From positions 1-20,655 of the forward strand of contig DAOVET010000042.1 in the NCBI GenBank assembly GCA_030668825.1: 20,655 nucleotides of DNA, in the 5' to 3' direction. Position numbers and translations under genes: made by a program. The first letter of the stretch is position 1; every line of letters begins with the position of its first letter. Below the pieces are notes generated by a model. The model was not told the DNA's origin and made no database searches. It saw only the letters and a program-made list of their open reading frames with translations. This DNA comes from Candidatus Heimdallarchaeota archaeon. GTDB lineage: Archaea > Asgardarchaeota > Heimdallarchaeia > Heimdallarchaeales > Heimdallarchaeaceae. Positions 1 through 13,804 of the stretch are shown in pieces.

Positions 1-129
1 ATTCTCCTATTGGTTCATCCTGTACTGGACCTGCTCCTCCAGGAAGTAATTCTCCTATTGGTTCATCCTGCACTGGACCTGCTCCTCCAGGAAGTAATTC
101 TCCTATTGGTTCATCCTGCACTGGACCTG
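1..129. repeat. 48-bp in-frame tandem repeat, at least 2.7 copies (1-48, 49-96, 97-129)
   Basis: Unit attctcctattggttcatcctg(t/c)actggacctgctcctccaggaagta. The only difference is a synonymous GTA/GTG change. No spacers. Confidence 0.97.
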
Positions 130-211
130 AATTGACAACAATGAACGAGCTTGCTAATAATACAAACAAAGATACTACAAATAATACTCCAATTGATTTT
201 TTTAATTTCAT
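1..211 (-). CDS. Secreted tandem-repeat protein or peptide precursor, 3'-truncated by the window edge: MKLKKSIGVLFVVSLFVLLASSFIVVNS-(GPVQDEPIGELLPGGA)n
   Basis: Manual translation from ATG at 211..209 stays open to the window edge. Basic N-region plus hydrophobic core, then 2.6 visible identical 16-aa units. SD-like GGTGGA (225..220) and TATA-like TTTAAATAT (269..261) lie upstream. Not in the supplied ORF track. Confidence 0.85.
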   Translation of the reverse strand, partial: MKLKKSIGVLFVVSLFVLLASSFIVVNSGPVQDEPIGELLPGGAGPVQDEPIGELLPGGAGPVQDEPIGE

Positions 212-260
212 TTAACTCTTCCACCAGCTAAATTGAACTCAAGTTTACGTTTTCATATGA

Positions 261-320
261 ATATTTAAACATTGTTACGAATTTCCATAATTACCGATTC
301 CGTGGAAATTTGTAACATTG
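261..320 (-). promoter_or_regulatory. TATA box of the repeat-peptide gene with an adjacent inverted repeat (candidate operator)
   Basis: TTTAAATAT on the minus strand at 269..261. tgttacgaatttcca (273-287) and tggaaatttgtaaca (303-317) form a 15-bp inverted repeat with 1 mismatch and a 15-nt spacer. Confidence 0.6.
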
Positions 321-563: not shown

Positions 564-590
564 TTCGATTAGCTATTTCCTTTCTTGATT

Positions 591-1109
591 ATGCCGGTCA
601 TTAGATGCAATCACTGTGGAAAAAGAGAAATTGACACTAAAATTTCTAATTCCAGAAACGCCTTCTATATGAAACGAAAGGATACCTATTATTGTTCTAA
701 AGAGTGTTATAGAATTGATAACGTGGGATTGAACTTTGCTTATCTTCCTCTTTGGTTATTATTACCGATCTATCCTTTCTGGATAACATGTATTATTCAT
801 ATTGTCAAGGGAATTAAACTACGCAAAGCCATTAATTATAAGCAAAGTAAGAAAATCAAACTTTGTTTTTATTGTCAATCTGAAATTGCTGAAATTCCTG
901 AAGGTAAAAGCGTTTGTATGAGTTGTGGCGAAATAATTCATTTCTGTGATCTATGTCAAAAGCATATATTTGCTGATGATAAAATTCTTCAGCTTGAACC
1001 TTGTGGGCATATTTTCCATAAAGGTGAATTACTTGATTGGATTGACAACAACAAAGTTTGTCCTAAATGTGCTGTTGAAGTAGATTTTGTGGATATTGAA
1101 CCTGAATAA
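591..1109 (+). CDS. Membrane-associated zinc-finger/RING-H2-variant protein (putative E3 ubiquitin ligase-like)
   Basis: N-terminal CNHC...CSKEC Zn site, hydrophobic segment LNFAYLPLWLLLPIYPFWITCIIHIV, CFYC...CMSC ribbon, then CDLC-x15-CGHIFHKGELLDW-x6-CPKC. ATG 591 preferred over TTG 585. Confidence 0.8.
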   Translation: MPVIRCNHCGKREIDTKISNSRNAFYMKRKDTYYCSKECYRIDNVGLNFAYLPLWLLLPIYPFWITCIIHIVKGIKLRKAINYKQSKKIKLCFYCQSEIAEIPEGKSVCMSCGEIIHFCDLCQKHIFADDKILQLEPCGHIFHKGELLDWIDNNKVCPKCAVEVDFVDIEPE

Positions 1110-1138: not shown

Positions 1139-1732
1139 TTACTTTGTTTTGATTAAACTCCGTTTTTTCTTTGTTTCTACAAAATCTTTTTTCTTGGTAT
1201 AATTTCTTGTCAAGACGATAGTCGCTGTAAGGATAGCTAAACCACCTATTGAACCTATGATCACCCATTCATTTACACCTGGGAGAAAAACTTCGATTAG
1301 AATCTTCACACTTTGCCCAGTGGTTGGAGCTCCAGCTGGTATGTAATTAGCATTTTCTGAAACAATATAATAGGTAACATCACCTTGACTTCCTAAGATG
1401 TTAATTTCAGCTTCATGCGATACACTGCTGAGTGCTGAAATATCCCTTTCATAGTCAATAGTAACATACTCATTTGATTTAAAACCAGCATAAAAGGAAT
1501 AATATTTCTCATAATCTGAAAAAACCAGCAAATCTGCCAATCGATTACATTCCCATTCTAGAATATACTTGTTTCCTCTCTCTAAATGTACAACCCAATG
1601 TACCATTGAATAAGCCTGCAATTCTATTTCTGCATAGAGTTTAACATCCTTTGCTTTTGCTTCCGATGTATTAGCTACTAATGGTGTCATAGCTAATAAC
1701 AAAATGATTACCAACCTATTCTTTTTCTTCAT
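1139..1732 (-). CDS. Exported single-pass membrane protein (signal peptide, beta-rich domain, C-terminal TM helix, basic tail)
   Basis: MKKKNR plus hydrophobic stretch and AEAKA site. C-terminal WVIIGSIGGLAILTATIVL followed by a Lys-rich tail. AAAGGTTATATA promoter upstream on the minus strand. Confidence 0.8.
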   Translation of the reverse strand: MKKKNRLVIILLLAMTPLVANTSEAKAKDVKLYAEIELQAYSMVHWVVHLERGNKYILEWECNRLADLLVFSDYEKYYSFYAGFKSNEYVTIDYERDISALSSVSHEAEINILGSQGDVTYYIVSENANYIPAGAPTTGQSVKILIEVFLPGVNEWVIIGSIGGLAILTATIVLTRNYTKKKDFVETKKKRSLIKTK

Positions 1733-1994: not shown

Positions 1995-2052
1995 AAACTA
2001 ATTTTTCTTGGTCTTTTTATATTTTCTTTCTTTTCTCTTTAATGAAAGTATT

Positions 2053-2316
2053 ATGCTTTTAGAATCACCTAGAACTGATGAAGAATTCTCTGACTATACT
2101 ATTGATTATATTCTTGCTGAATCCTTCAAATCTTATTATGCTACTATTGATGGTCTGACTATTGAACCTGTCTGGATTCCCAAATCTTGTGTAAATAAAG
2201 ATTATCGTATCAAAATCTGGTGGATGAAACAGTTTAAATCTGGCAAGAGCACTAGGAAAAAAGTTGAGACTAAGGTTGTTCAAAAGAAATTGAAACATTT
2301 TTTTGAAACTCAGTAG
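2053..2316 (+). CDS. Hypothetical small protein with a VWIPKS motif
   Basis: ATG 2053 preferred because the TTG extension from 2008 is low-complexity T-rich sequence. Acidic N-terminus, basic C-terminus. Confidence 0.6.
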   Translation: MLLESPRTDEEFSDYTIDYILAESFKSYYATIDGLTIEPVWIPKSCVNKDYRIKIWWMKQFKSGKSTRKKVETKVVQKKLKHFFETQ

Positions 2317-2413
2317 TTTAAATGTTGAGAAACTAAACTAGGCTGTGTATTCATACTATTGATAATTTGTTTTCATATTTTTATAATCAAATCACTTCAC
2401 TTGTTTGATTGAC

Positions 2414-2779
2414 ATGGCTCTTATTTGGGGAGATACTAAGGAAACACAGGAAGTTGCTAAAAACTCTTTTGAGGAGAATATAGAGCGGATTCTAAAACAA
2501 AAAGAGAAAATTAACCTTGATGACTTGATGAAACTAATTAGTCATGATACTAATCTGCTAACAGACTATCAGCGATTACTAAAAGGAATAGACCAATTGC
2601 TAGAAGAAGGAAAGATAATTATTGATCAAGATAAAAATATCCGAATGACAACTCTATCAGTTTTAGGTTCTAATGGAATAGAGGAGACGCCTGTTTGGGA
2701 TCTCATCCATAAGGAAGAAGATATAGAGTTGAAAAAAGAAATAATCAGACGTTATAATCAGATTAATCCTTTACTCTAA
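2414..2779 (+). CDS. Hypothetical protein, possible winged-helix domain
   Basis: Helical pattern IERILKQKEKINLDDLMKLI...LLKGIDQLLEEGKIIID resembles wHTH folds. ATG at 2414. Confidence 0.6.
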   Translation: MALIWGDTKETQEVAKNSFEENIERILKQKEKINLDDLMKLISHDTNLLTDYQRLLKGIDQLLEEGKIIIDQDKNIRMTTLSVLGSNGIEETPVWDLIHKEEDIELKKEIIRRYNQINPLL

Positions 2780-3615
2780 AGATTATTTTTCTTTTTCCAT
2801 TCTTTAGGTGAAACAACTGGAGGATGGACATATCTTTCATGCTTATCTATTGCGTCAATCTTTTGAATATCTTCATCTGAAAGCTGTAAATCCAACGCTG
2901 CAAAATTATCCTTCAAATGGTCAAGACTCGTTGCTTTAGGTACTGGATAAGCTCCTTTGTCAATCACCCAAGCTAGACAAACTTGTGCTGCGCTAAATTT
3001 GTTCTTCCTAGCTATTTCATTGATTACTGAATCTTTTAGAGCTTTACCTCTTCCTAAAGGTGAATAAGAAACCTGAAAGATATTGTTCTCTTTGTGAAAT
3101 TTTAGAACTTCTGGTTGTTGAAGATAAGGATGATGCTCTATTTGATTTGCAAATATAGGCTTATCAATGACTTCTAAAGCATCTTTTATCAGTTGAGGAG
3201 TGAAATTCGAAACTCCTATATGTCTTATTTTCCCTTCATCAACTAGTTCTCCTAGAGCTCCTAATGTCTTCTTATGAGAATATCCCAGCACAAAAGCTGG
3301 GAAATGAATATACATTATGTCGACATAATCCAATTGAAGTCTTTTTAAGGACTTATATGTTGATTTTACAGCTGCTTTTGGTCTTATGCTCAGAGGAGAA
3401 ACTTTAGTTGAAACAATTACTTCTTCTCTCTTAGCAATTCCCTTTTCAAAAACCTCTTGCAGTCCATCTCCTACTCCCTTCTCATTTCGATAAGCTTGAG
3501 CTGTGTCCACAAATCTATATCCAAGTTTGATAGCTTGAATAGTGGAATATCTAGCTTCATATGGTTTGAGCATCCAGGTTCCTAATCCAATTTTAGGGAG
3601 TTTCATTTCTGACAT
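2776..3615 (-). CDS. Aldo/keto reductase (DkgA/DkgB-like)
   Basis: IGLGTW, GYRFVDTAQAY (catalytic Asp/Tyr), STKV, YIHFP, IGVSNF, NQIEHHPY, YSPLGRG and PVPKA motifs. Confidence 0.95.
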   Translation of the reverse strand: MSEMKLPKIGLGTWMLKPYEARYSTIQAIKLGYRFVDTAQAYRNEKGVGDGLQEVFEKGIAKREEVIVSTKVSPLSIRPKAAVKSTYKSLKRLQLDYVDIMYIHFPAFVLGYSHKKTLGALGELVDEGKIRHIGVSNFTPQLIKDALEVIDKPIFANQIEHHPYLQQPEVLKFHKENNIFQVSYSPLGRGKALKDSVINEIARKNKFSAAQVCLAWVIDKGAYPVPKATSLDHLKDNFAALDLQLSDEDIQKIDAIDKHERYVHPPVVSPKEWKKKNNL

Positions 3616-9512: not shown

Positions 9513-10076
9513 TTACTTACTTTCAACAGTCATTTTTTCAAAATAAGCAGAAATGTTTTCTGTTAAAACACTGAAAACGGTTTCAACATTTAAACCAGTC
9601 TTAGCTGAAGTCTCGATGTAAGGGATGTAGAAACCTGACCATTCAGAAAGTTGATCAGCATACTCTTGAGCATATTCTTTTGGAACAGAATTAGGTGTAC
9701 TCTCACGAAGATCAGCTTTGTTACCAATTAAAACGAGTGGAACTATTCGATTCTTATTATTACGAATAAGTTCATGCAGCCAATTTGGAAGTACAGAATA
9801 GGTTTCAGGACGAGCAATATCAAAAACTAATAAAGCCCCAGCAGTACCGCGATAGTAGACTTCCCTTACCGCTGAAAATCGCTGTTGACCCGCTAAATCC
9901 CAAATTTGTAGTGTGTAATCAACGTTCTTATGGACCATTTTTTTAACAGCGAAGTCAGCACCGATTGTCATCATGTACCCCTCTTTAAAGCTCTCTCCTA
10001 GGTATCTTCGACGTATACTTGTCTTACCGACTGCGCCTTCTCCTAGCAACGAAATTTTGAAAATCCTTTGGCTCAC
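9513..10076 (-). CDS. Rab-like small GTPase (Ras superfamily)
   Basis: G1 GEGAVGKT, G2 TIGADF, G3 WDLAGQ, G4 NKAD, G5 ETSAK, plus RabF-like TLQIW, YYRGT, LVFDI. GTG start with GTGGTG SD. Confidence 0.96.
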   Translation of the reverse strand: MSQRIFKISLLGEGAVGKTSIRRRYLGESFKEGYMMTIGADFAVKKMVHKNVDYTLQIWDLAGQQRFSAVREVYYRGTAGALLVFDIARPETYSVLPNWLHELIRNNKNRIVPLVLIGNKADLRESTPNSVPKEYAQEYADQLSEWSGFYIPYIETSAKTGLNVETVFSVLTENISAYFEKMTVESK

Positions 10077-11311: not shown

Positions 11312-12154
11312 TTATTTATAGATTAGTTTTCTCTTTCTTCTTATAACAATAACTCCTGCTATTAACAGAACAGAAATTCCCGCAATCCATCCAAAAGGCG
11401 CTACTTTTATATCCTCGTCAGTTATTTCTAACAATATCTCAACTTCTTCTACAACTGAATCAGTTATCCTAGTCAAGTGTAATTCATATGAACTAAGTAC
11501 TCCCCATTCTTTGTTATATATCACTTTAGAATCTTGAGTGATATCTGTCTCTTCAAGTCCAACCATCACTATCAAATGAATTTTTGCTTCTATTGAAAAT
11601 AATTTTGCTTTATTAGTTAATTTATACTTCATTCCCATCATAGAGAATTCATATTGTTTCAAATCATCATATAAGTAATCAAAAGTACTGATTTCAGCTC
11701 CTCCTACTTGAACAGTTTGTGGATAAATGAATTTTACTGGAAAGTAGTCTAGATATGGATTTATATCATTAAAAGCAATCAAACTGGCATCATCTCCTAG
11801 TAGTACTGAATTTAAATAAAATTCTGCCCAAGTTTCAGTCGTAGTGTATAAATCATCATAATTACTTATGTTTAAATTGTCTGGATCTACTAGGAATTTT
11901 ATCTTGAAAATGTCTCCTTGTGTCACGTTAATTTCTGAAGTTATTTGCCAAATATAGTCTTCCGGAGTATCATAGACCAAATAAAATGTTGTCATAACCC
12001 ATGATAATTCTAAGGGAGCTTCAAGATTGTTATTATATGTGAAATCTTCTACATTGTTAGCAATAACAAAGTTTTGACCATAATTAATTGAAACTAAAAT
12101 TGCTATCAGAGTCAATGATAAAACTGCTTTATTCTTTTTATTAATTCTAAACAC
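11312..12154 (-). CDS. Exported surface protein, paralog 2 (signal peptide, C-terminal PFGW-TM-basic anchor)
   Basis: Shares TQGDIFKIKFLVDPDNLNISNY, YNKEWGVLSSYEL and PFGWIAGI blocks with paralog 1. Confidence 0.85.
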   Translation of the reverse strand: MFRINKKNKAVLSLTLIAILVSINYGQNFVIANNVEDFTYNNNLEAPLELSWVMTTFYLVYDTPEDYIWQITSEINVTQGDIFKIKFLVDPDNLNISNYDDLYTTTETWAEFYLNSVLLGDDASLIAFNDINPYLDYFPVKFIYPQTVQVGGAEISTFDYLYDDLKQYEFSMMGMKYKLTNKAKLFSIEAKIHLIVMVGLEETDITQDSKVIYNKEWGVLSSYELHLTRITDSVVEEVEILLEITDEDIKVAPFGWIAGISVLLIAGVIVIRRKRKLIYK

Positions 12155-12184
12155 CTCACTGTTTTCTAAAGTATGTGTTAACTT

Positions 12185-12213
12185 TTAATTGTATATAAAC
12201 ACTAGGTCTAGAA
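12185..12213 (-). promoter_or_regulatory. TATA box plus palindrome upstream of paralog 2
   Basis: The minus strand reads TTCTAGACCTAGTGTTTATATACAATTAA, near-identical to 11154-11182. Confidence 0.65.
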
Positions 12214-12255
12214 GTCATACACAAAAAAAATATAGTACTAATCATAGTTAAATCC

Positions 12256-12717
12256 ATGGAAATAATAGTTAAGCCAATTGGTTTAATCGAATCTCCTTTC
12301 AATGAATCAGAAAAAGGTCCTATTCAACCCGGTTTCTCAGAATCTTTTGGAACTGTAGTTGTTAATATGGAATACATCGAGGGACTTAAAGAGATTGATG
12401 GTTTTTCTCACATTATTTTGCTTTACTATTTTGATCGAGCAGAGACCGTTGACCTGAAAGTTATTCCTTATCTAGATACTACCCCTAAAGGAATTTTCGC
12501 GATTCGTCATCCTAACAGACCCAACAAAATAGGGTTATCTATTGTTCAGTTAGTAAGTGTTGAAAAAAACAAACTTCTCGTTAGGGGTATTGATGTTTTA
12601 AATAATACTCCTCTACTAGATATCAAACCTTTTGTACCTGAATTTGATATCAAGGGTATCAAAGATACTCGAATAGGTTGGTTATCTGAAAGATTACGAA
12701 AAGAAGAAGGTGAATGA
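12256..12717 (+). CDS. tsaA: tRNA (N6-threonylcarbamoyladenosine(37)-N6)-methyltransferase TrmO/TsaA (YaeB family)
   Basis: KPIGLI, GLKEIDGFSHIILLYYF, GIFAIRHPNRPNKIGLS and GIDVLNNTPLLDIKP motifs. Confidence 0.92.
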   Translation: MEIIVKPIGLIESPFNESEKGPIQPGFSESFGTVVVNMEYIEGLKEIDGFSHIILLYYFDRAETVDLKVIPYLDTTPKGIFAIRHPNRPNKIGLSIVQLVSVEKNKLLVRGIDVLNNTPLLDIKPFVPEFDIKGIKDTRIGWLSERLRKEEGE

Positions 12718-13804
12718 CATTCCCAAGGTAGATTGTGCTGTTATTCTTGCTGGAGGTAAAGGCTCTCGTTTAAGTCCACTAACAACTAACAAACCTAAAC
12801 CTTTGATTCCTGTTACCCTTACACCAATGATTGATTTTGCTTTCAAACAAATCACTGATGCAGGAATCTCTAAAATCATCGTTGCAGTGAAATATCTAGG
12901 AGAACAGATTATTGATTATTTGAACAATTCTACTAAATTTTCTGATTTAAAGATCATTATTCCAGATATAAATCCCATTGGAACAGCTGATGCAGTTAGA
13001 AATGTTTCAGATATTATCGATGGAGATTTTGTAGTATCTATGGCAGATATAGTTTGTGATCTTTCGATTAATAAGATGCAGAAGTTTTTCTACTCAACTG
13101 ATGCTTACGCAACAATCAGCTTGAAGAATATAGATTTTCCCACAAAGAAATTTGGAGTTATACTTCTTGATGAAGAGCAAAATATAGAGATATTTTTAGA
13201 AAAACCCAAACCAGAAGAGATGTTATTTACAACAATGGCTTTTGCTTATCGACCTGTAGCTGAATTCCATCAAAATTTGGTTAATACTGGAATATATTTT
13301 TTTAAACATAGGGCTCTAGAAATTTTAGATAATTTCAAAGATATTGTAGATTTTGGGCAAGATATGTTTCCTTATCTTCTTCAAGAAAAATTCAAACTAA
13401 ATGGATATGTGGGTGATTACTATTGGATAGACGCGGGGAATGTTAGAAGTTATCTGTGGGCTAACTATGACGTTCTAAGAGGTTTTGTCTCCGATTATTC
13501 CCCACCAGGCAAGAATAAGAAAGGTATATGGATGGGTGAAAATTTAACAATTGACGAAACTGCAAAAATTATTCCTCCTGTTGTAATCGGGGATAATGTG
13601 GAGATTTCTAAAAATTCTGTAGTTGGACCATTTTCAGTTCTACATAAGGATGTAAAATTAAGAGAAAATGTTTCGGTTGAACGTAGTGTAATTTGGGAAA
13701 ATTCTGTGATCAATAATAATGCTTTCATTAAGAATTCTGTTGTTTGTGAAAATGTAGAAATTGAGGAGAACAGAAAGATAATTAAGTACTCAGCAATTAG
13801 CTGA
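12710..13804 (+). CDS. NDP-sugar pyrophosphorylase (mannose-1-phosphate guanylyltransferase-like) with a C-terminal left-handed beta-helix
   Basis: ILAGGKGSRLSPLT..KPKPLIP, GTADAVR, FLEKP, NTGIY, YWIDAG motifs and hexapeptide repeats. Confidence 0.9.
   Translation: MNDIPKVDCAVILAGGKGSRLSPLTTNKPKPLIPVTLTPMIDFAFKQITDAGISKIIVAVKYLGEQIIDYLNNSTKFSDLKIIIPDINPIGTADAVRNVSDIIDGDFVVSMADIVCDLSINKMQKFFYSTDAYATISLKNIDFPTKKFGVILLDEEQNIEIFLEKPKPEEMLFTTMAFAYRPVAEFHQNLVNTGIYFFKHRALEILDNFKDIVDFGQDMFPYLLQEKFKLNGYVGDYYWIDAGNVRSYLWANYDVLRGFVSDYSPPGKNKKGIWMGENLTIDETAKIIPPVVIGDNVEISKNSVVGPFSVLHKDVKLRENVSVERSVIWENSVINNNAFIKNSVVCENVEIEENRKIIKYSAIS

Follow-up and report, generated by a model that had tools for sequence, protein, structure and literature searches.

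How is a gene to be read that couples a signal peptide directly to a run of identical 16-residue units and leaves the assembled DNA before it ends? The locus lies at the left edge of the window, by which we mean the whole stretch of 20,655 nucleotides analysed here, from a Candidatus Heimdallarchaeota archaeon (C102:1-20655). A preliminary description had proposed a secreted multi-copy peptide precursor in an Asgard-like host, and the relatives found in the parent family described below indeed carry the source names Candidatus Heimdallarchaeum, Kariarchaeaceae and Hodarchaeales. Positions 2..211 of the reverse strand hold the 5' part of this repeat-peptide gene, with the ATG at 209-211 in the ORF list; the frame reads MKLKKSIGVLFVVSLFVLLASSFIVVNS, followed by 2.6 units of GPVQDEPIGELLPGGA, and exits the window at its left end. 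Tandem Repeats Finder reports the repeat at window 1-129 (period 48, 2.7 copies, 98% matches, score 251), which together with the ORF bears out the fusion of a signal peptide to identical units. The single synonymous base by which the units had been said to differ was found as well: units 1 and 2 are the same in DNA and unit 3 has one change, GTG to GTA. The features of the locus are the following.

2..211, reverse strand: 5' part of the repeat-peptide gene, from the ORF list; the remainder is at the end of contig C93.
128..211, reverse strand: predicted Sec signal peptide of 28 aa, judged by eye from the sequence.
2..127, reverse strand: 2.6 tandem 48-nt units, each coding GPVQDEPIGELLPGGA, from Tandem Repeats Finder and the units standing in register.
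221..225, reverse strand: GGTGG, Shine-Dalgarno-like, 9 nt before the ATG; function putative.
262..269, reverse strand: TTTAAATA, TATA-box-like, ~54 nt before the ATG; function putative.
272..280, reverse strand: TCGTAACAA, candidate operator abutting the TATA-like box.

Since window position 1 is base 1 of contig C102, the truncation of the ORF reflects the contig end and not biology. Elsewhere the 48-nt repeat occurs only at C93:13609-13908, an end of contig C93, where the frame continues for a 16-aa tail past the last full unit, ends after GPLEPIGSHAYGAFKI and meets a stop. In genome G009 a single contig bears the gene order of C93, the repeat gene and the genes of C102, which supports joining C102 to C93; the assembler split the gene inside its own 48-nt repeat. 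In four runs from four studies the repeat is collapsed to a 78-nt loop unitig, whose depth is 2.2-2.75 times that of the flanks in three runs and 4.3 times in the remaining one; a join with 4 cores would predict a ratio of 1.83 and one with 7 cores a ratio of 3.6. The search beyond the window thus supplied the stop, on C93, and a number of ~5-8 units, the latter being a depth-ratio estimate from Logan contigs. The same contigs speak against an assembly artefact, as the repeat is present in these independent runs. None of the locus-bearing runs listed is recorded as RNA, and the one guessed to be RNA, probably DNA, takes in just window 52-129 along with a few further pieces. The organism occurs in cold-seep and marine-sediment metagenomes.

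The whole product is therefore well supported as a small exported protein in which a signal peptide precedes ~5-8 acidic units of 16 aa, nearly identical to one another, and a tail of 16 aa closes the chain. The unit has 3 acidic and 0 basic residues (net charge -3), 3 Pro and 4 Gly, and is without Cys, Ser and Thr. The lack of a folded domain, first noted for the visible part, holds for the whole protein. The preliminary description had also allowed for a spacer within a larger surface protein, an alternative that we reject because the frame ends after the tail without a globular domain or C-terminal anchor; complete homologs likewise have 62-142 aa, that of G009 being 142 aa long. Pfam and NCBIfam yielded no family for the repeat protein. 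Collagen-like repeats were ruled out, as Gly is not at every third residue, and a type IV pilin-like signal was set aside by eye, as neither G nor A stands behind the basic N-terminus where such a signal would be cut.

The signal peptide was judged by eye: its N-terminus is basic, its core is hydrophobic and the residues at -3/-1 ahead of the first unit are small, with S or A at -1 and V, A or T at -3 in the homologs. Another possible cut would fall after residue 22 (..LLASS). The N-terminal hydrophobic stretch of ~21 residues is also compatible with an uncleaved membrane anchor, which counts against a peptide signal. In a crude scan, 343 of 8,027 genome ORFs of at least 45 aa were signal-peptide-like, and an exact tandem repeat was present in only three of these 343: the repeat gene itself, the frame antisense to it on C93, and a multi-pass membrane protein. 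The combination in the repeat gene is hence more than chance.

Matches to the repeat protein were found in 12 of 24 genomes of the same genus and in 0 of 16 genomes of other families, and six further members of 78-94 aa with the same layout were recovered among 5.8 billion protein clusters. Repeat-only proteins are thus well supported as a genus-restricted family. Complete homologs in the genus have 2-7 cores, and all keep a signal-peptide-like segment and the stop. The invariant element is P-x-x-D-E-P-I-G, and the spacers between cores, 2-6 residues long, are species-specific. In one subclade (G002, G005, G008, G022) a single K or R stands at the unit borders in place of GGA, and GGA, whose Gly-Gly the preliminary description had related to a common type of processing site, is for this reason not a conserved cut site. 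Homologs have 4-16 residues beyond the last core, with no hydrophobic helix or C-terminal anchor signal. No longer or fused forms (250-2000 aa) were found, which is weak evidence. One protein with AGPVEDEPVVD-like repeats and a different C-terminal domain (P0008) was judged unrelated, its motif being convergent.

Across 49 cores the codons vary: D is GAT in 30 and GAC in 19, E is GAA in 34 and GAG in 12, I is ATA in 32, ATC in 12 and ATT in 3, and G is GGA in 26, GGT in 17, GGC in 2 and GGG in 4. Only five residue changes occur and the D-E-P-I-G core is constant, the variation being focused on third codon positions in this frame only. Upstream of the gene, AGCTGGTGGA is kept in 14/14 orthologous regions and T[TC]TAAATA stands at equal distance in 13/14. 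The repeat gene is therefore very likely translated, since codons vary under a fixed core and the upstream motifs are conserved. Next to the TATA-like box, T[TC]GTAACAA is found at -69 (+/-4) in 12 of 14 orthologs and may, speculatively, be an operator; where the window has TCGTAACAA, most relatives have TTGTAACAA, a 9-bp palindrome.

Directly downstream of the repeat gene, on the same strand and on C93 at 11,855-13,246, lies a gene for a fused tandem Lrp/AsnC-type HTH protein, with TTGTACA(A) sites ahead of it. The search among neighbouring genes thus had a mixed outcome: the expected HTH protein is there, while no dedicated peptidase, modification enzyme or exporter adjoins the repeat gene. 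None of these three was detected among the ORFs called on C93 and C102 either, Pfam named only HTH, RING finger, aldo/keto reductase and sugar kinase among 13 of the nearest neighbours, and the loci of relatives showed no recurring modification, leader peptidase or exporter gene. Orthologs of the HTH protein, with at least 57% identity, are present in 17 other genomes of the genus, and a repeat-type or intermediate gene lies directly upstream in 16 of them, the contig being cut in the 17th. Conserved gene order within one genus is expected from descent, a point that counts against the peptide-signal reading. The gap between peptide and HTH genes is 355-421 nt in this genus as opposed to 9-97 nt in the parent modules, so co-transcription of the repeat and HTH genes is not evident. 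Rfam and tRNA scans of this spacer gave no match, and all that RNAalifold recovered from a MAFFT alignment was an invariant outer stem.

The HTH partner has 463 aa, including inserts and a disordered C-terminal 40 aa, and its AF2 model (pLDDT 84.5, pTM 0.82) contains two wHTH plus beta-alpha-beta modules per chain. Fused NirDL was the best fold match (E = 1.6e-10), followed by many Lrp/AsnC regulators and archaeal FFRPs; no TPR receptor was among the fold matches listed. Only AsnC-type HTH families were found in Pfam, at 28.4 bits against a cut-off of 27, and in NCBIfam the protein stayed far under every equivalog cut-off (e.g. AhbA, 20 bits versus 140). As modelled, the partner is of the Lrp/AsnC type, an AsnC-type wHTH being followed by a RAM-like beta-alpha-beta domain. 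It resembles the Lrp/AsnC (FFRP) regulators and the fused siroheme decarboxylases NirDL / AhbA-AhbB in its fold and AsnC-type HTH match, and differs from them in its length, its inserts and the absence of a haem-pathway context. NirDL, its nearest fold match, is an enzyme, an observation that counts against a peptide receptor. The known ligands of Lrp/AsnC proteins are amino acids and other small molecules, not peptides, and we know of no member of the family paired with a secreted protein. Co-folding of partner residues 1-422, supplied with an alignment, and the 42-aa repeat segment scored 0.01 against a mark of 0.32, a result without controls that speaks neither for nor against binding. The genome of the window, G000, has a second tandem-Lrp paralog, on C82, which falls outside the family; the gene upstream of it codes for a glycoprotein of 298 aa that is unrelated and is anchored at its C-terminus.

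Such HTH pairing reaches far beyond the genus. In related genera, the site of the repeat gene appears to be occupied by a gene of an unannotated parent family of secreted proteins of ~150 aa, with a beta-sandwich domain of ~100 aa and a conserved C-terminal tail that consists of FDPPGG and ~12 residues and reads ..D-E-P.. in members at the corresponding locus. With the parent profile, 39 of 47 genomes in the order gave 117 rows, and 60 of 83 in the class Heimdallarchaeia gave matches. A listed HTH match lies directly downstream in at least 67 of the 115 parent rows used, and all 18 sampled parent loci that had no listed match or belonged to other orders do have an HTH gene, with profile E-values of 1e-98 to 2e-10. 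In the control, the HTH profile matched only the two true paralogs among 35,662 decoy ORFs. The pairing spans the whole class and its paralogs. A conserved membrane-protein gene located further downstream on C93 reappears behind the HTH gene in G044, G045 and G046. Under the definition of the FDPPGG-tail family used here, the window protein shares the HTH adjacency and not the domain: it is without the parent beta-sandwich, and the parent profile had no match in the G000 genome.

The secreted members are absent from Pfam, NCBIfam and the source annotation, and the ESM Atlas returned 'hypothetical protein' clusters only. Foldseek against the PDB gave no match for the parent domain at E <= 0.001, and a wide VIA structural search found only generic beta-sandwich matches, with 68 chains at Z >=8. 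Z is 10.1 for a bacterial alpha-2-macroglobulin MG domain and 8.8 for the B. subtilis proteinase inhibitor Ipi (rmsd 3.1, 98 aligned), two of the many tied neighbours. In the parent model the extreme C-terminus pairs as a strand, which counts against a peptide signal, and because the folded domain is conserved the tail is not the sole functional part of the parents. Tails are 8-24 residues long, 15-16 aa in 34 of 50. The tail is more conserved than the domain in five of the six closest pairs and less conserved than it among 199 distant pairs (0.21 versus 0.28), a pattern that speaks for the tail as a possible determinant of specificity. Twelve of 65 parent-family matches, eight of 178-231 aa and four of 70-116 aa, were read and not one had more than a single tail; the long proteins owe their additional residues to N-terminal mis-starts or acidic inserts.

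By position and by motif, the repeat gene appears to derive from the C-terminal tail of a parent. A P-G-G ... D-E-P motif, seen by eye, is common to the window protein and to the tails at the corresponding locus of G041, G044, G045 and G046. An HMM of the intermediate forms detects the repeat-only forms of G004 (E = 3.5e-13) and G021 (E = 4.5e-8), and reaches the parents at an E of about 8.5 only. Likewise, hhalign of the parent alignment with the G002 and G009 proteins gave no match, and when all of the 35,662 stop-to-stop ORFs in G000 were searched with a parent-tail HMM, the window gene was not among the top matches. The link between repeat unit and parent tail is without support from sequence statistics.

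Based on this analysis we tentatively propose, at less than an even chance, that the repeat gene is a multi-copy precursor of extracellular peptides that are read out by the adjacent regulator, a Rap-Phr-like arrangement made of unrelated parts. The beta-sandwich domain would have been lost stepwise in this genus while the tail was amplified. The precursor would be exported by Sec and cleaved by signal peptidase, and extracellular proteases would cut the disordered repeat array, releasing a short acidic peptide in several copies. The neighbouring tandem-Lrp regulator would sense how much of this peptide is present, either directly, once it is re-imported, or by an indirect route, and would control its own cassette. 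The logic would then be that of the Rap-Phr/RRNPPA propeptide-receptor cassettes, including those with tandemly duplicated propeptides, built from unrelated proteins in an archaeon.

RRNPPA propeptides are described as 50-120 aa long, Sec-exported, encoded next to the receptor gene and matured by extracellular proteases, with the pheromone usually C-terminal and sometimes present in 1-4 copies (PMC11343458; PMC5199041). Measured against those accounts of the Bacillota systems (Rap-Phr, PlcR-PapR, NprR-NprX, AimR-AimP), the Heimdallarchaeial modules are alike in that a small Sec-exported product is encoded beside a cytoplasmic regulator, the putative active element stands at the extreme C-terminus of the product and several paralogous cassettes occur per genome. 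The lengths of the repeat homologs, with a signal peptide judged by eye, correspond to the size range given for the propeptides, and the adjoining HTH gene corresponds to the receptor gene, its receptor role being putative. Secreted proteases, the maturases of RRNPPA systems in the same accounts, are frequent neighbours of the Heimdallarchaeial modules. The differences are substantial: the receptors Rap, Rgg, NprR, PlcR, PrgX and AimR are of TPR type, whereas here the partner belongs to the fused tandem Lrp/AsnC type; the modules come from archaea, their parent precursor has a conserved beta-sandwich of ~100 aa, and the 16-aa unit occurs in 2-7 or more copies. For maturation to a 5-10 aa peptide and its re-import by Opp, the counterpart here is known from generic machinery genes alone. 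The G000 genome has 10 OppA-type (SBP_bac_5) and 7 S8 matches, which is necessary and not specific.

Two other known layouts were compared. Fungal alpha-factor and KEP precursors consist of a signal peptide and tandem identical cores and nothing else, with dibasic sites between the cores. The repeat gene has the same layout, but the window units contain no K or R, single K/R residues occur only in the subclade named above, and the fungal precursors, unlike the repeat gene, belong to a eukaryotic secretory pathway and have no adjacent receptor gene. In PGF-CTERM and PEP-CTERM archaeosortase/exosortase signals, a motif is followed by a transmembrane helix and a basic cluster. The likeness is a short conserved Pro/Gly motif near the C-terminus of an exported archaeal protein, whereas the residues beyond the motif are here only 4-16 and non-hydrophobic.

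Extended to the whole class, the proposal becomes a doubtful one that we nevertheless take as possible: Heimdallarchaeial peptide-signalling cassettes in which a dedicated subtilase would free the tail, the tandem-Lrp protein would be the receptor and the tails would be paralog-specific, the window gene being a streamlined version with 5-8 copies per translation product. An S8 gene lies within 3.5 kb of at least 24 of 115 parent genes, counted among the best 150 of 458 S8 rows, compared with a chance expectation of ~2% by our own arithmetic. In the five S8 proteins examined, all were prodomain-less, consisting of the catalytic domain only, with the domain starting at residue 66-110. In family f1 an S8 gene is nearby in four of 60 among the matches listed, and in this genome no S8 subtilase stands beside the repeat gene.

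Several other explanations compete with the peptide precursor. It is possible, though on the unlikely side, that the product is never processed and remains an intrinsically disordered polyanion, located on the cell surface or in the surrounding medium and either free or tethered by an uncleaved N-terminal helix, with a bulk physical role such as cation binding, hydration, anti-fouling or multivalent adhesion; the HTH gene would then only regulate transcription or be linked by descent. The acidic, Pro- and Gly-containing composition of the unit agrees with this, as do the transmembrane-helix length of the hydrophobic N-terminus, a copy number that ranges from 2 to 7 among species as in many surface repeat proteins, the cold-seep and marine-sediment provenance of the host and the lack of a processing enzyme adjoining the gene in this genome. 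Nevertheless, bulk physical roles rarely need an invariant 5-residue core under purifying selection with a free spacer, the HTH pairing extends class-wide and across paralogs, and a C-terminal anchor signal is absent.

An unlikely, yet far from negligible, explanation is that the tail motif is a recognition sequence for the secreted subtilases. The parent tail would dock in the prodomain-less protease as an inhibitor, trans chaperone or anchoring partner, and the repeat-only protein would be a multivalent substrate, decoy or competitive inhibitor tuning extracellular proteolysis. The S8 genes near the parents, with their catalytic domain only, argue for it, as do the MG domain and Ipi among the beta-sandwich neighbours. 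Reactive sites of protease inhibitors vary among paralogs, a pattern into which the paralog-variable tails fit. However, the fold matches are generic, and the parent beta-sandwich probably differs from the subtilisin I9 prodomain, whose fold is alpha/beta. The HTH gene is moreover kept in every module even without S8 nearby, as in most of f1 among the matches listed, no S8 gene adjoins the window gene, and a floppy repeat array without scaffold would make a poor inhibitor.

A multi-core RiPP or antimicrobial precursor, whose units would be modified and released cores, is very improbable. The leader-like N-terminus followed by identical tandem cores does recall such precursors, but no modifying enzyme, leader peptidase or dedicated exporter was found among the called ORFs and none recurs in relatives, a Sec signal peptide would carry the precursor away from cytoplasmic modification enzymes, and the units are strongly acidic and lack Cys, Ser and Thr. 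The net charge of -3 and the absence of any basic residue per unit argue in particular against the antimicrobial role suggested in the preliminary description, at least one of the classical cationic type. That the stretch is a non-coding tandem repeat or an assembly artefact with frames open by accident is close to refuted and has hardly any probability left: although every reading frame is open across the repeat, a contig end falls here and three odd substitutions mark the final unit at the tip of C93, the start codon, ribosome-binding-like motif and TATA-like box are conserved, third-position variation is confined to this frame, all complete homologs keep the signal peptide and stop, and independent runs of four different studies contain the repeat.

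Cell-to-cell signalling by gene-encoded peptides is, to our knowledge, established in bacteria and eukaryotes and not in archaea, and in the literature on Asgard archaea we found nothing comparable to a peptide-signal cassette. If the cassettes proposed for the class are real, archaea would have their first genetically encoded peptide pheromone system, and it would belong to the lineage nearest to the eukaryotes. Independently of this reading, the analysis defines a concrete and widely conserved Heimdallarchaeial gene pair, often a trio, whose secreted members are without annotation, and gives a clear example of repeat protein evolution through domain loss and tail amplification. Even if signalling is wrong, the module offers a handle on the archaeal control of extracellular proteolysis or surface properties. 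The window gene amounts to a natural deletion experiment: it is without the carrier domain, has the tail in several copies and is still linked to the regulator, and the signalling hypothesis is therefore directly testable.

The open reading frame at the edge of the window and the regulator gene that follows it are located as follows, C93 being a second contig of the source genome (G000).

Window 2..211, minus strand: 5' part of the repeat-gene ORF, with its ATG at 209-211 and open at the left end of the window.
C93:11,855-13,246, same strand as the repeat gene: HTH gene, ~460 aa, directly downstream of the repeat gene.

Translation of the first reads MKLKKSIGVLFVVSLFVLLASSFIVVNS and then two and a half copies of GPVQDEPIGELLPGGA, and Tandem Repeats Finder assigned window 1-129 a period of 48, 2.7 copies and 98% matches, so the signal peptide fused to identical repeats of the preliminary description was correct; the same plan is found in all family members. 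The DNA of units 1 and 2 is identical and unit 3 carries one synonymous base change. Since the window begins at the first base of its contig (C102), it is the assembly that truncates the ORF. Elsewhere in the 138-contig genome the 48-nt repeat occurs only in the final 300 bases of C93, with unchanged orientation, where the minus strand encodes five further units, then GPLEPIGSHAYGAFKI and a stop codon. The join of C93 to C102 is supported by the relative G009, in which the C93 gene order, a complete repeat gene of 142 aa and three homologues of window genes 2008-3615 follow one another on one contig. The complete repeat protein is built of a signal peptide, the repeat units and a tail of 16 aa, with neither globular domain nor anchor; the lack of a folded domain, first noted for the visible part, extends to the whole product, and the suggestion that the repeats are the linker of a large surface protein is excluded.

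The assemblies of G013, G012 and G018 likewise terminate within the repeat, and in contigs of four sequencing runs, drawn from four studies, it is collapsed to a 78-nt loop (48 + 30), the expectation for a perfect 48-nt repeat at k = 31. Loop-to-flank depth ratios in the four runs were 4.3, 2.6, 2.2 and 2.75, against predictions of 1.83 for a minimal-overlap join (4 cores) and 3.6 for plain concatenation (7 cores), and the gene therefore holds roughly 5-8 cores, a number that may differ between strains. The unit at the tip of C93 (L021 13852-13908, L021 being the same contig) reads GPVHDERIGELLAGGA; it differs from the other units by three non-synonymous changes, follows an odd VCA and may be an assembly tip error or a genuine variant unit, and the minimal-overlap join requires its trimming.

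A recognisable homologue was found in 12 of 24 genomes of the same genus and in none of the 16 genomes of other families searched alongside, and 5.8 billion protein clusters contained six more family members of 78-94 aa. In all members the signal peptide closes on a small residue exactly ahead of the first unit, and 2-7 cores, each ending D-x-P-[ILV]-[GQS], are separated by 2-6 species-specific residues plus (P)GGA and followed by 4-9 terminal residues. Across 49 cores compared, the D-E-P-I-G residues show five changes and their codons vary freely; selection thus acts on the protein in this frame. Just upstream of the ATG lies AGCTGGTGGA (14/14 orthologues), with a T[TC]TAAATA box at constant distance upstream (13/14) and T[TC]GTAACAA adjoining this TATA-like box (12/14; window 272-280, minus strand, in G000). 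Ahead of the HTH gene, 10 of 15 species have related TTGTACA(A)/TTGTATAA sites (L021 ~13323-13370), eight of them as a pair at ~-124 and ~-77. Both kinds of site may be shared operators of the peptide and HTH genes; TTGTACAA occurs 82 times in the genome and TTGTAACAA 48 times, so neither motif is rare. The repeat gene is the sole secreted-type ORF with an exact tandem repeat in G000. A database protein from an unrelated source (P0008, 201 aa) combines an N-terminal hydrophobic segment with AGPVEDEP[VL]VD-like repeats ahead of a PF27542 domain; its GPVEDEP motif looks convergent, and it is probably no relative.

In 17 other genomes of the genus there is an HTH orthologue of at least 57% identity, with a repeat-type gene directly 5' of it in 16 and the contig cut in the 17th. 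Pfam recognises only an AsnC-type HTH at the N-terminus. The AF2 model (pLDDT 84.5, pTM 0.82; last 40 aa disordered) comprises two wHTH plus beta-alpha-beta modules in a single chain, for which the top Foldseek match was the fused siroheme decarboxylase NirDL (E = 1.6e-10); next came AsnC, Lrp and archaeal relatives, some of whose structures contain amino acids as ligands. Since it has no signal peptide, the HTH protein is presumably cytoplasmic.

Between the repeat-gene stop and the HTH start, a GC-rich block of ~190 nt (L021 13397-13586) is kept in 15/15 genus members examined, with invariant stretches and a central hairpin with a GAGGTC loop, whose arms appear to covary between species. Rfam yielded nothing in it at E of at most 1, and no tRNA was found; the block folded with z = -1.9 on the gene-sense and z = -0.3 on the antisense strand, and is a candidate structured RNA or UTR element. 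Other features nearby are the following.

Window 585-1109, plus strand: RING-finger protein, 174 aa (C-terminal PF13639, E = 4.9e-8), divergent from the repeat gene.
Window 1139-1732, minus strand: 197-aa ORF with a signal peptide; its C-terminal part has a hydrophobic segment and then basic residues.
Window 9513-10076, minus strand; L021 6934-7485, plus strand; L021 3698-4285, plus strand: small Ras/Arf-family GTPase-like ORFs, recognised by eye.

The RING protein has a Cys-rich N-terminal segment and, by eye, hydrophobic segments, and homologues stand near the repeat gene in G001, G006, G016 and G024. The 197-aa ORF matched no Pfam family and had no homologue in the relatives' loci compared. 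The putative GTPases show, by eye, G-x4-GK[ST] near the N-terminus and would fit an Asgard genome.

Four genus members without a match to the peptide query (G002, G005, G008, G022) carry, upstream of the HTH orthologue, a gene for a signal peptide, a ~25-aa conserved segment and 2-3 units bounded by K or R. A gene for a ~150-aa secreted protein, here called the parent, lies upstream of the HTH gene's nearest relatives outside the genus, and also of more distant paralogues. The C-terminus of this protein is a single FDPPGG plus ~12 residues; the tails of G041, G044, G045 and G046 read ..D-E-P.. at the corresponding position. In G044, G045 and G046 the gene after the HTH gene is a conserved membrane-protein gene also found further downstream on C93, and these loci are therefore positional counterparts of the repeat-gene locus. 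The secreted protein of G044 is a reduced form (102 aa, one tail). From position and motif we infer a series that would run from full domain with one tail, through reduced domain with one tail and remnant with 2-3 tails, to no domain with 2-7 or more tails. An hhalign comparison of the parent alignment with the G002 and G009 proteins gave no match, and a tail-only HMM did not place the window gene among its top matches in G000. An HMM of the intermediate forms linked significantly to repeat-only proteins of G004 and G021, ranked the two fragments of the window gene first among 35,662 decoys, but at E = 2.4 and 4.1, and reached parent proteins at E ~8.5. Hence, derivation of the repeat from the parent tail is not established by sequence statistics.

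The parent proteins belong to no Pfam or NCBIfam family, are 'hypothetical' in every naming source (Heimdallarchaeum, Kariarchaeaceae, Hodarchaeales and a few other Asgard labels), and an Atlas search returned nothing beyond hypothetical proteins. In their AF2 model (pLDDT 83.7) seven strands form a beta-sandwich, whose structural neighbours are generic, and the tail is lower in confidence. The parent profile gave 117 rows in 39 of the 47 genomes of the order and matches in 60 of the 83 class genomes, spread over all 18 genera, with up to 8-9 per genome. Of 24 genus members, 19 carry 1-3 copies; G000 has no match, and it holds only two tandem-Lrp paralogues against up to 8 matches in relatives; this shortage is either loss or an effect of the 90.6% genome completeness. 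For the pairing count 115 rows were used, two second fragments being dropped. Among the matches listed, an HTH-family match lies directly downstream in 67/115, namely 57/60 within family f1 and 10/55 outside it, where the HTH query, a single sequence, was weak. In ten 'unpaired' loci and eight from other orders, fetched individually, an HTH gene was directly downstream in 18/18 (profile E-values 1e-98 to 2e-10), and among 35,662 decoys this profile matches only the two true paralogues. Thus the pairing is conserved across class and paralogues, which is much stronger evidence than synteny inside one genus.

Furthermore, at least 24 of the 115 parent genes have a secreted S8 subtilase gene no more than 3.5 kb away, a lower bound drawn from 150 of 458 S8 rows, with a chance expectation estimated at ~2%. 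Those neighbours examined have a catalytic domain only (5/5), starting at residue 66-110. Small subtilases beside the pairs in relatives (L062-L066 and other loci; e.g. L065:1119-2156, minus strand) are 333-377 aa long, with signal peptide, short Gly/Pro-rich linker and S8 catalytic domain alone, without I9 prodomain. Of the 6 closest pairs, 5 have a parent tail that is better conserved than the domain, and among 199 distant pairs the tail is the less conserved of the two, a small sample of related, non-independent sequences; on these comparisons the tail behaves as a specificity element would. The connection with the regulator would depend on the tail, which was probably kept and multiplied on domain loss and would diverge between paralogues, not between orthologues.

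A literature search of main texts turned up no relevant counterpart, whether in Asgard or in other archaea. A Kex2-type repeat precursor was ruled out, the repeat protein having no dibasic sites, as was a PGF/PEP-CTERM protein, there being no C-terminal helix. The layout of repeat gene and HTH gene resembles the RRNPPA cassette. According to two papers (PMC11343458; PMC5199041), RRNPPA propeptides of 50-120 aa adjoin the receptor gene, are exported by Sec and matured by extracellular proteases, and their pheromone is usually C-terminal, in some cases in 1-4 tandem copies. Because its partner has a predicted Lrp/AsnC fold, in contrast to the TPR fold of RRNPPA, the repeat-gene cassette falls outside that group.

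We regard as shown the gene structure, the family, the protein-level selection, the unvarying association with a tandem Lrp/AsnC-type gene and, for the parent modules, the frequency of a nearby subtilase. We tentatively favour a precursor of acidic peptide copies, since this fits most of these points and those inferred for the tail: a disordered repeat array would be exported and cleaved to give the same acidic peptide several times over, and the adjacent regulator might read out the abundance of this peptide. Against it count the small-molecule nature of the known ligands of Lrp/AsnC proteins, the conserved domain retained in the parent, and the 355-421 nt between peptide and HTH genes in this genus. 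An unprocessed polyanionic protein, at the surface or secreted, is a somewhat unlikely alternative, and a protease-directed substrate, decoy or inhibitor, for which the subtilases of the parent modules would come into question, is a little less likely still. Of the neighbours sought after the preliminary description, the HTH gene is present, and no modification gene was seen among the ORFs called on C93 and C102 (13 Pfam-scanned), which rules out a RiPP locus; a RiPP or antimicrobial precursor is very improbable. With selection acting in this frame, a non-gene is scarcely credible. The repeat gene is real and unusual, and its HTH partner, the parent family and the subtilase context make the putative role as a peptide precursor testable.
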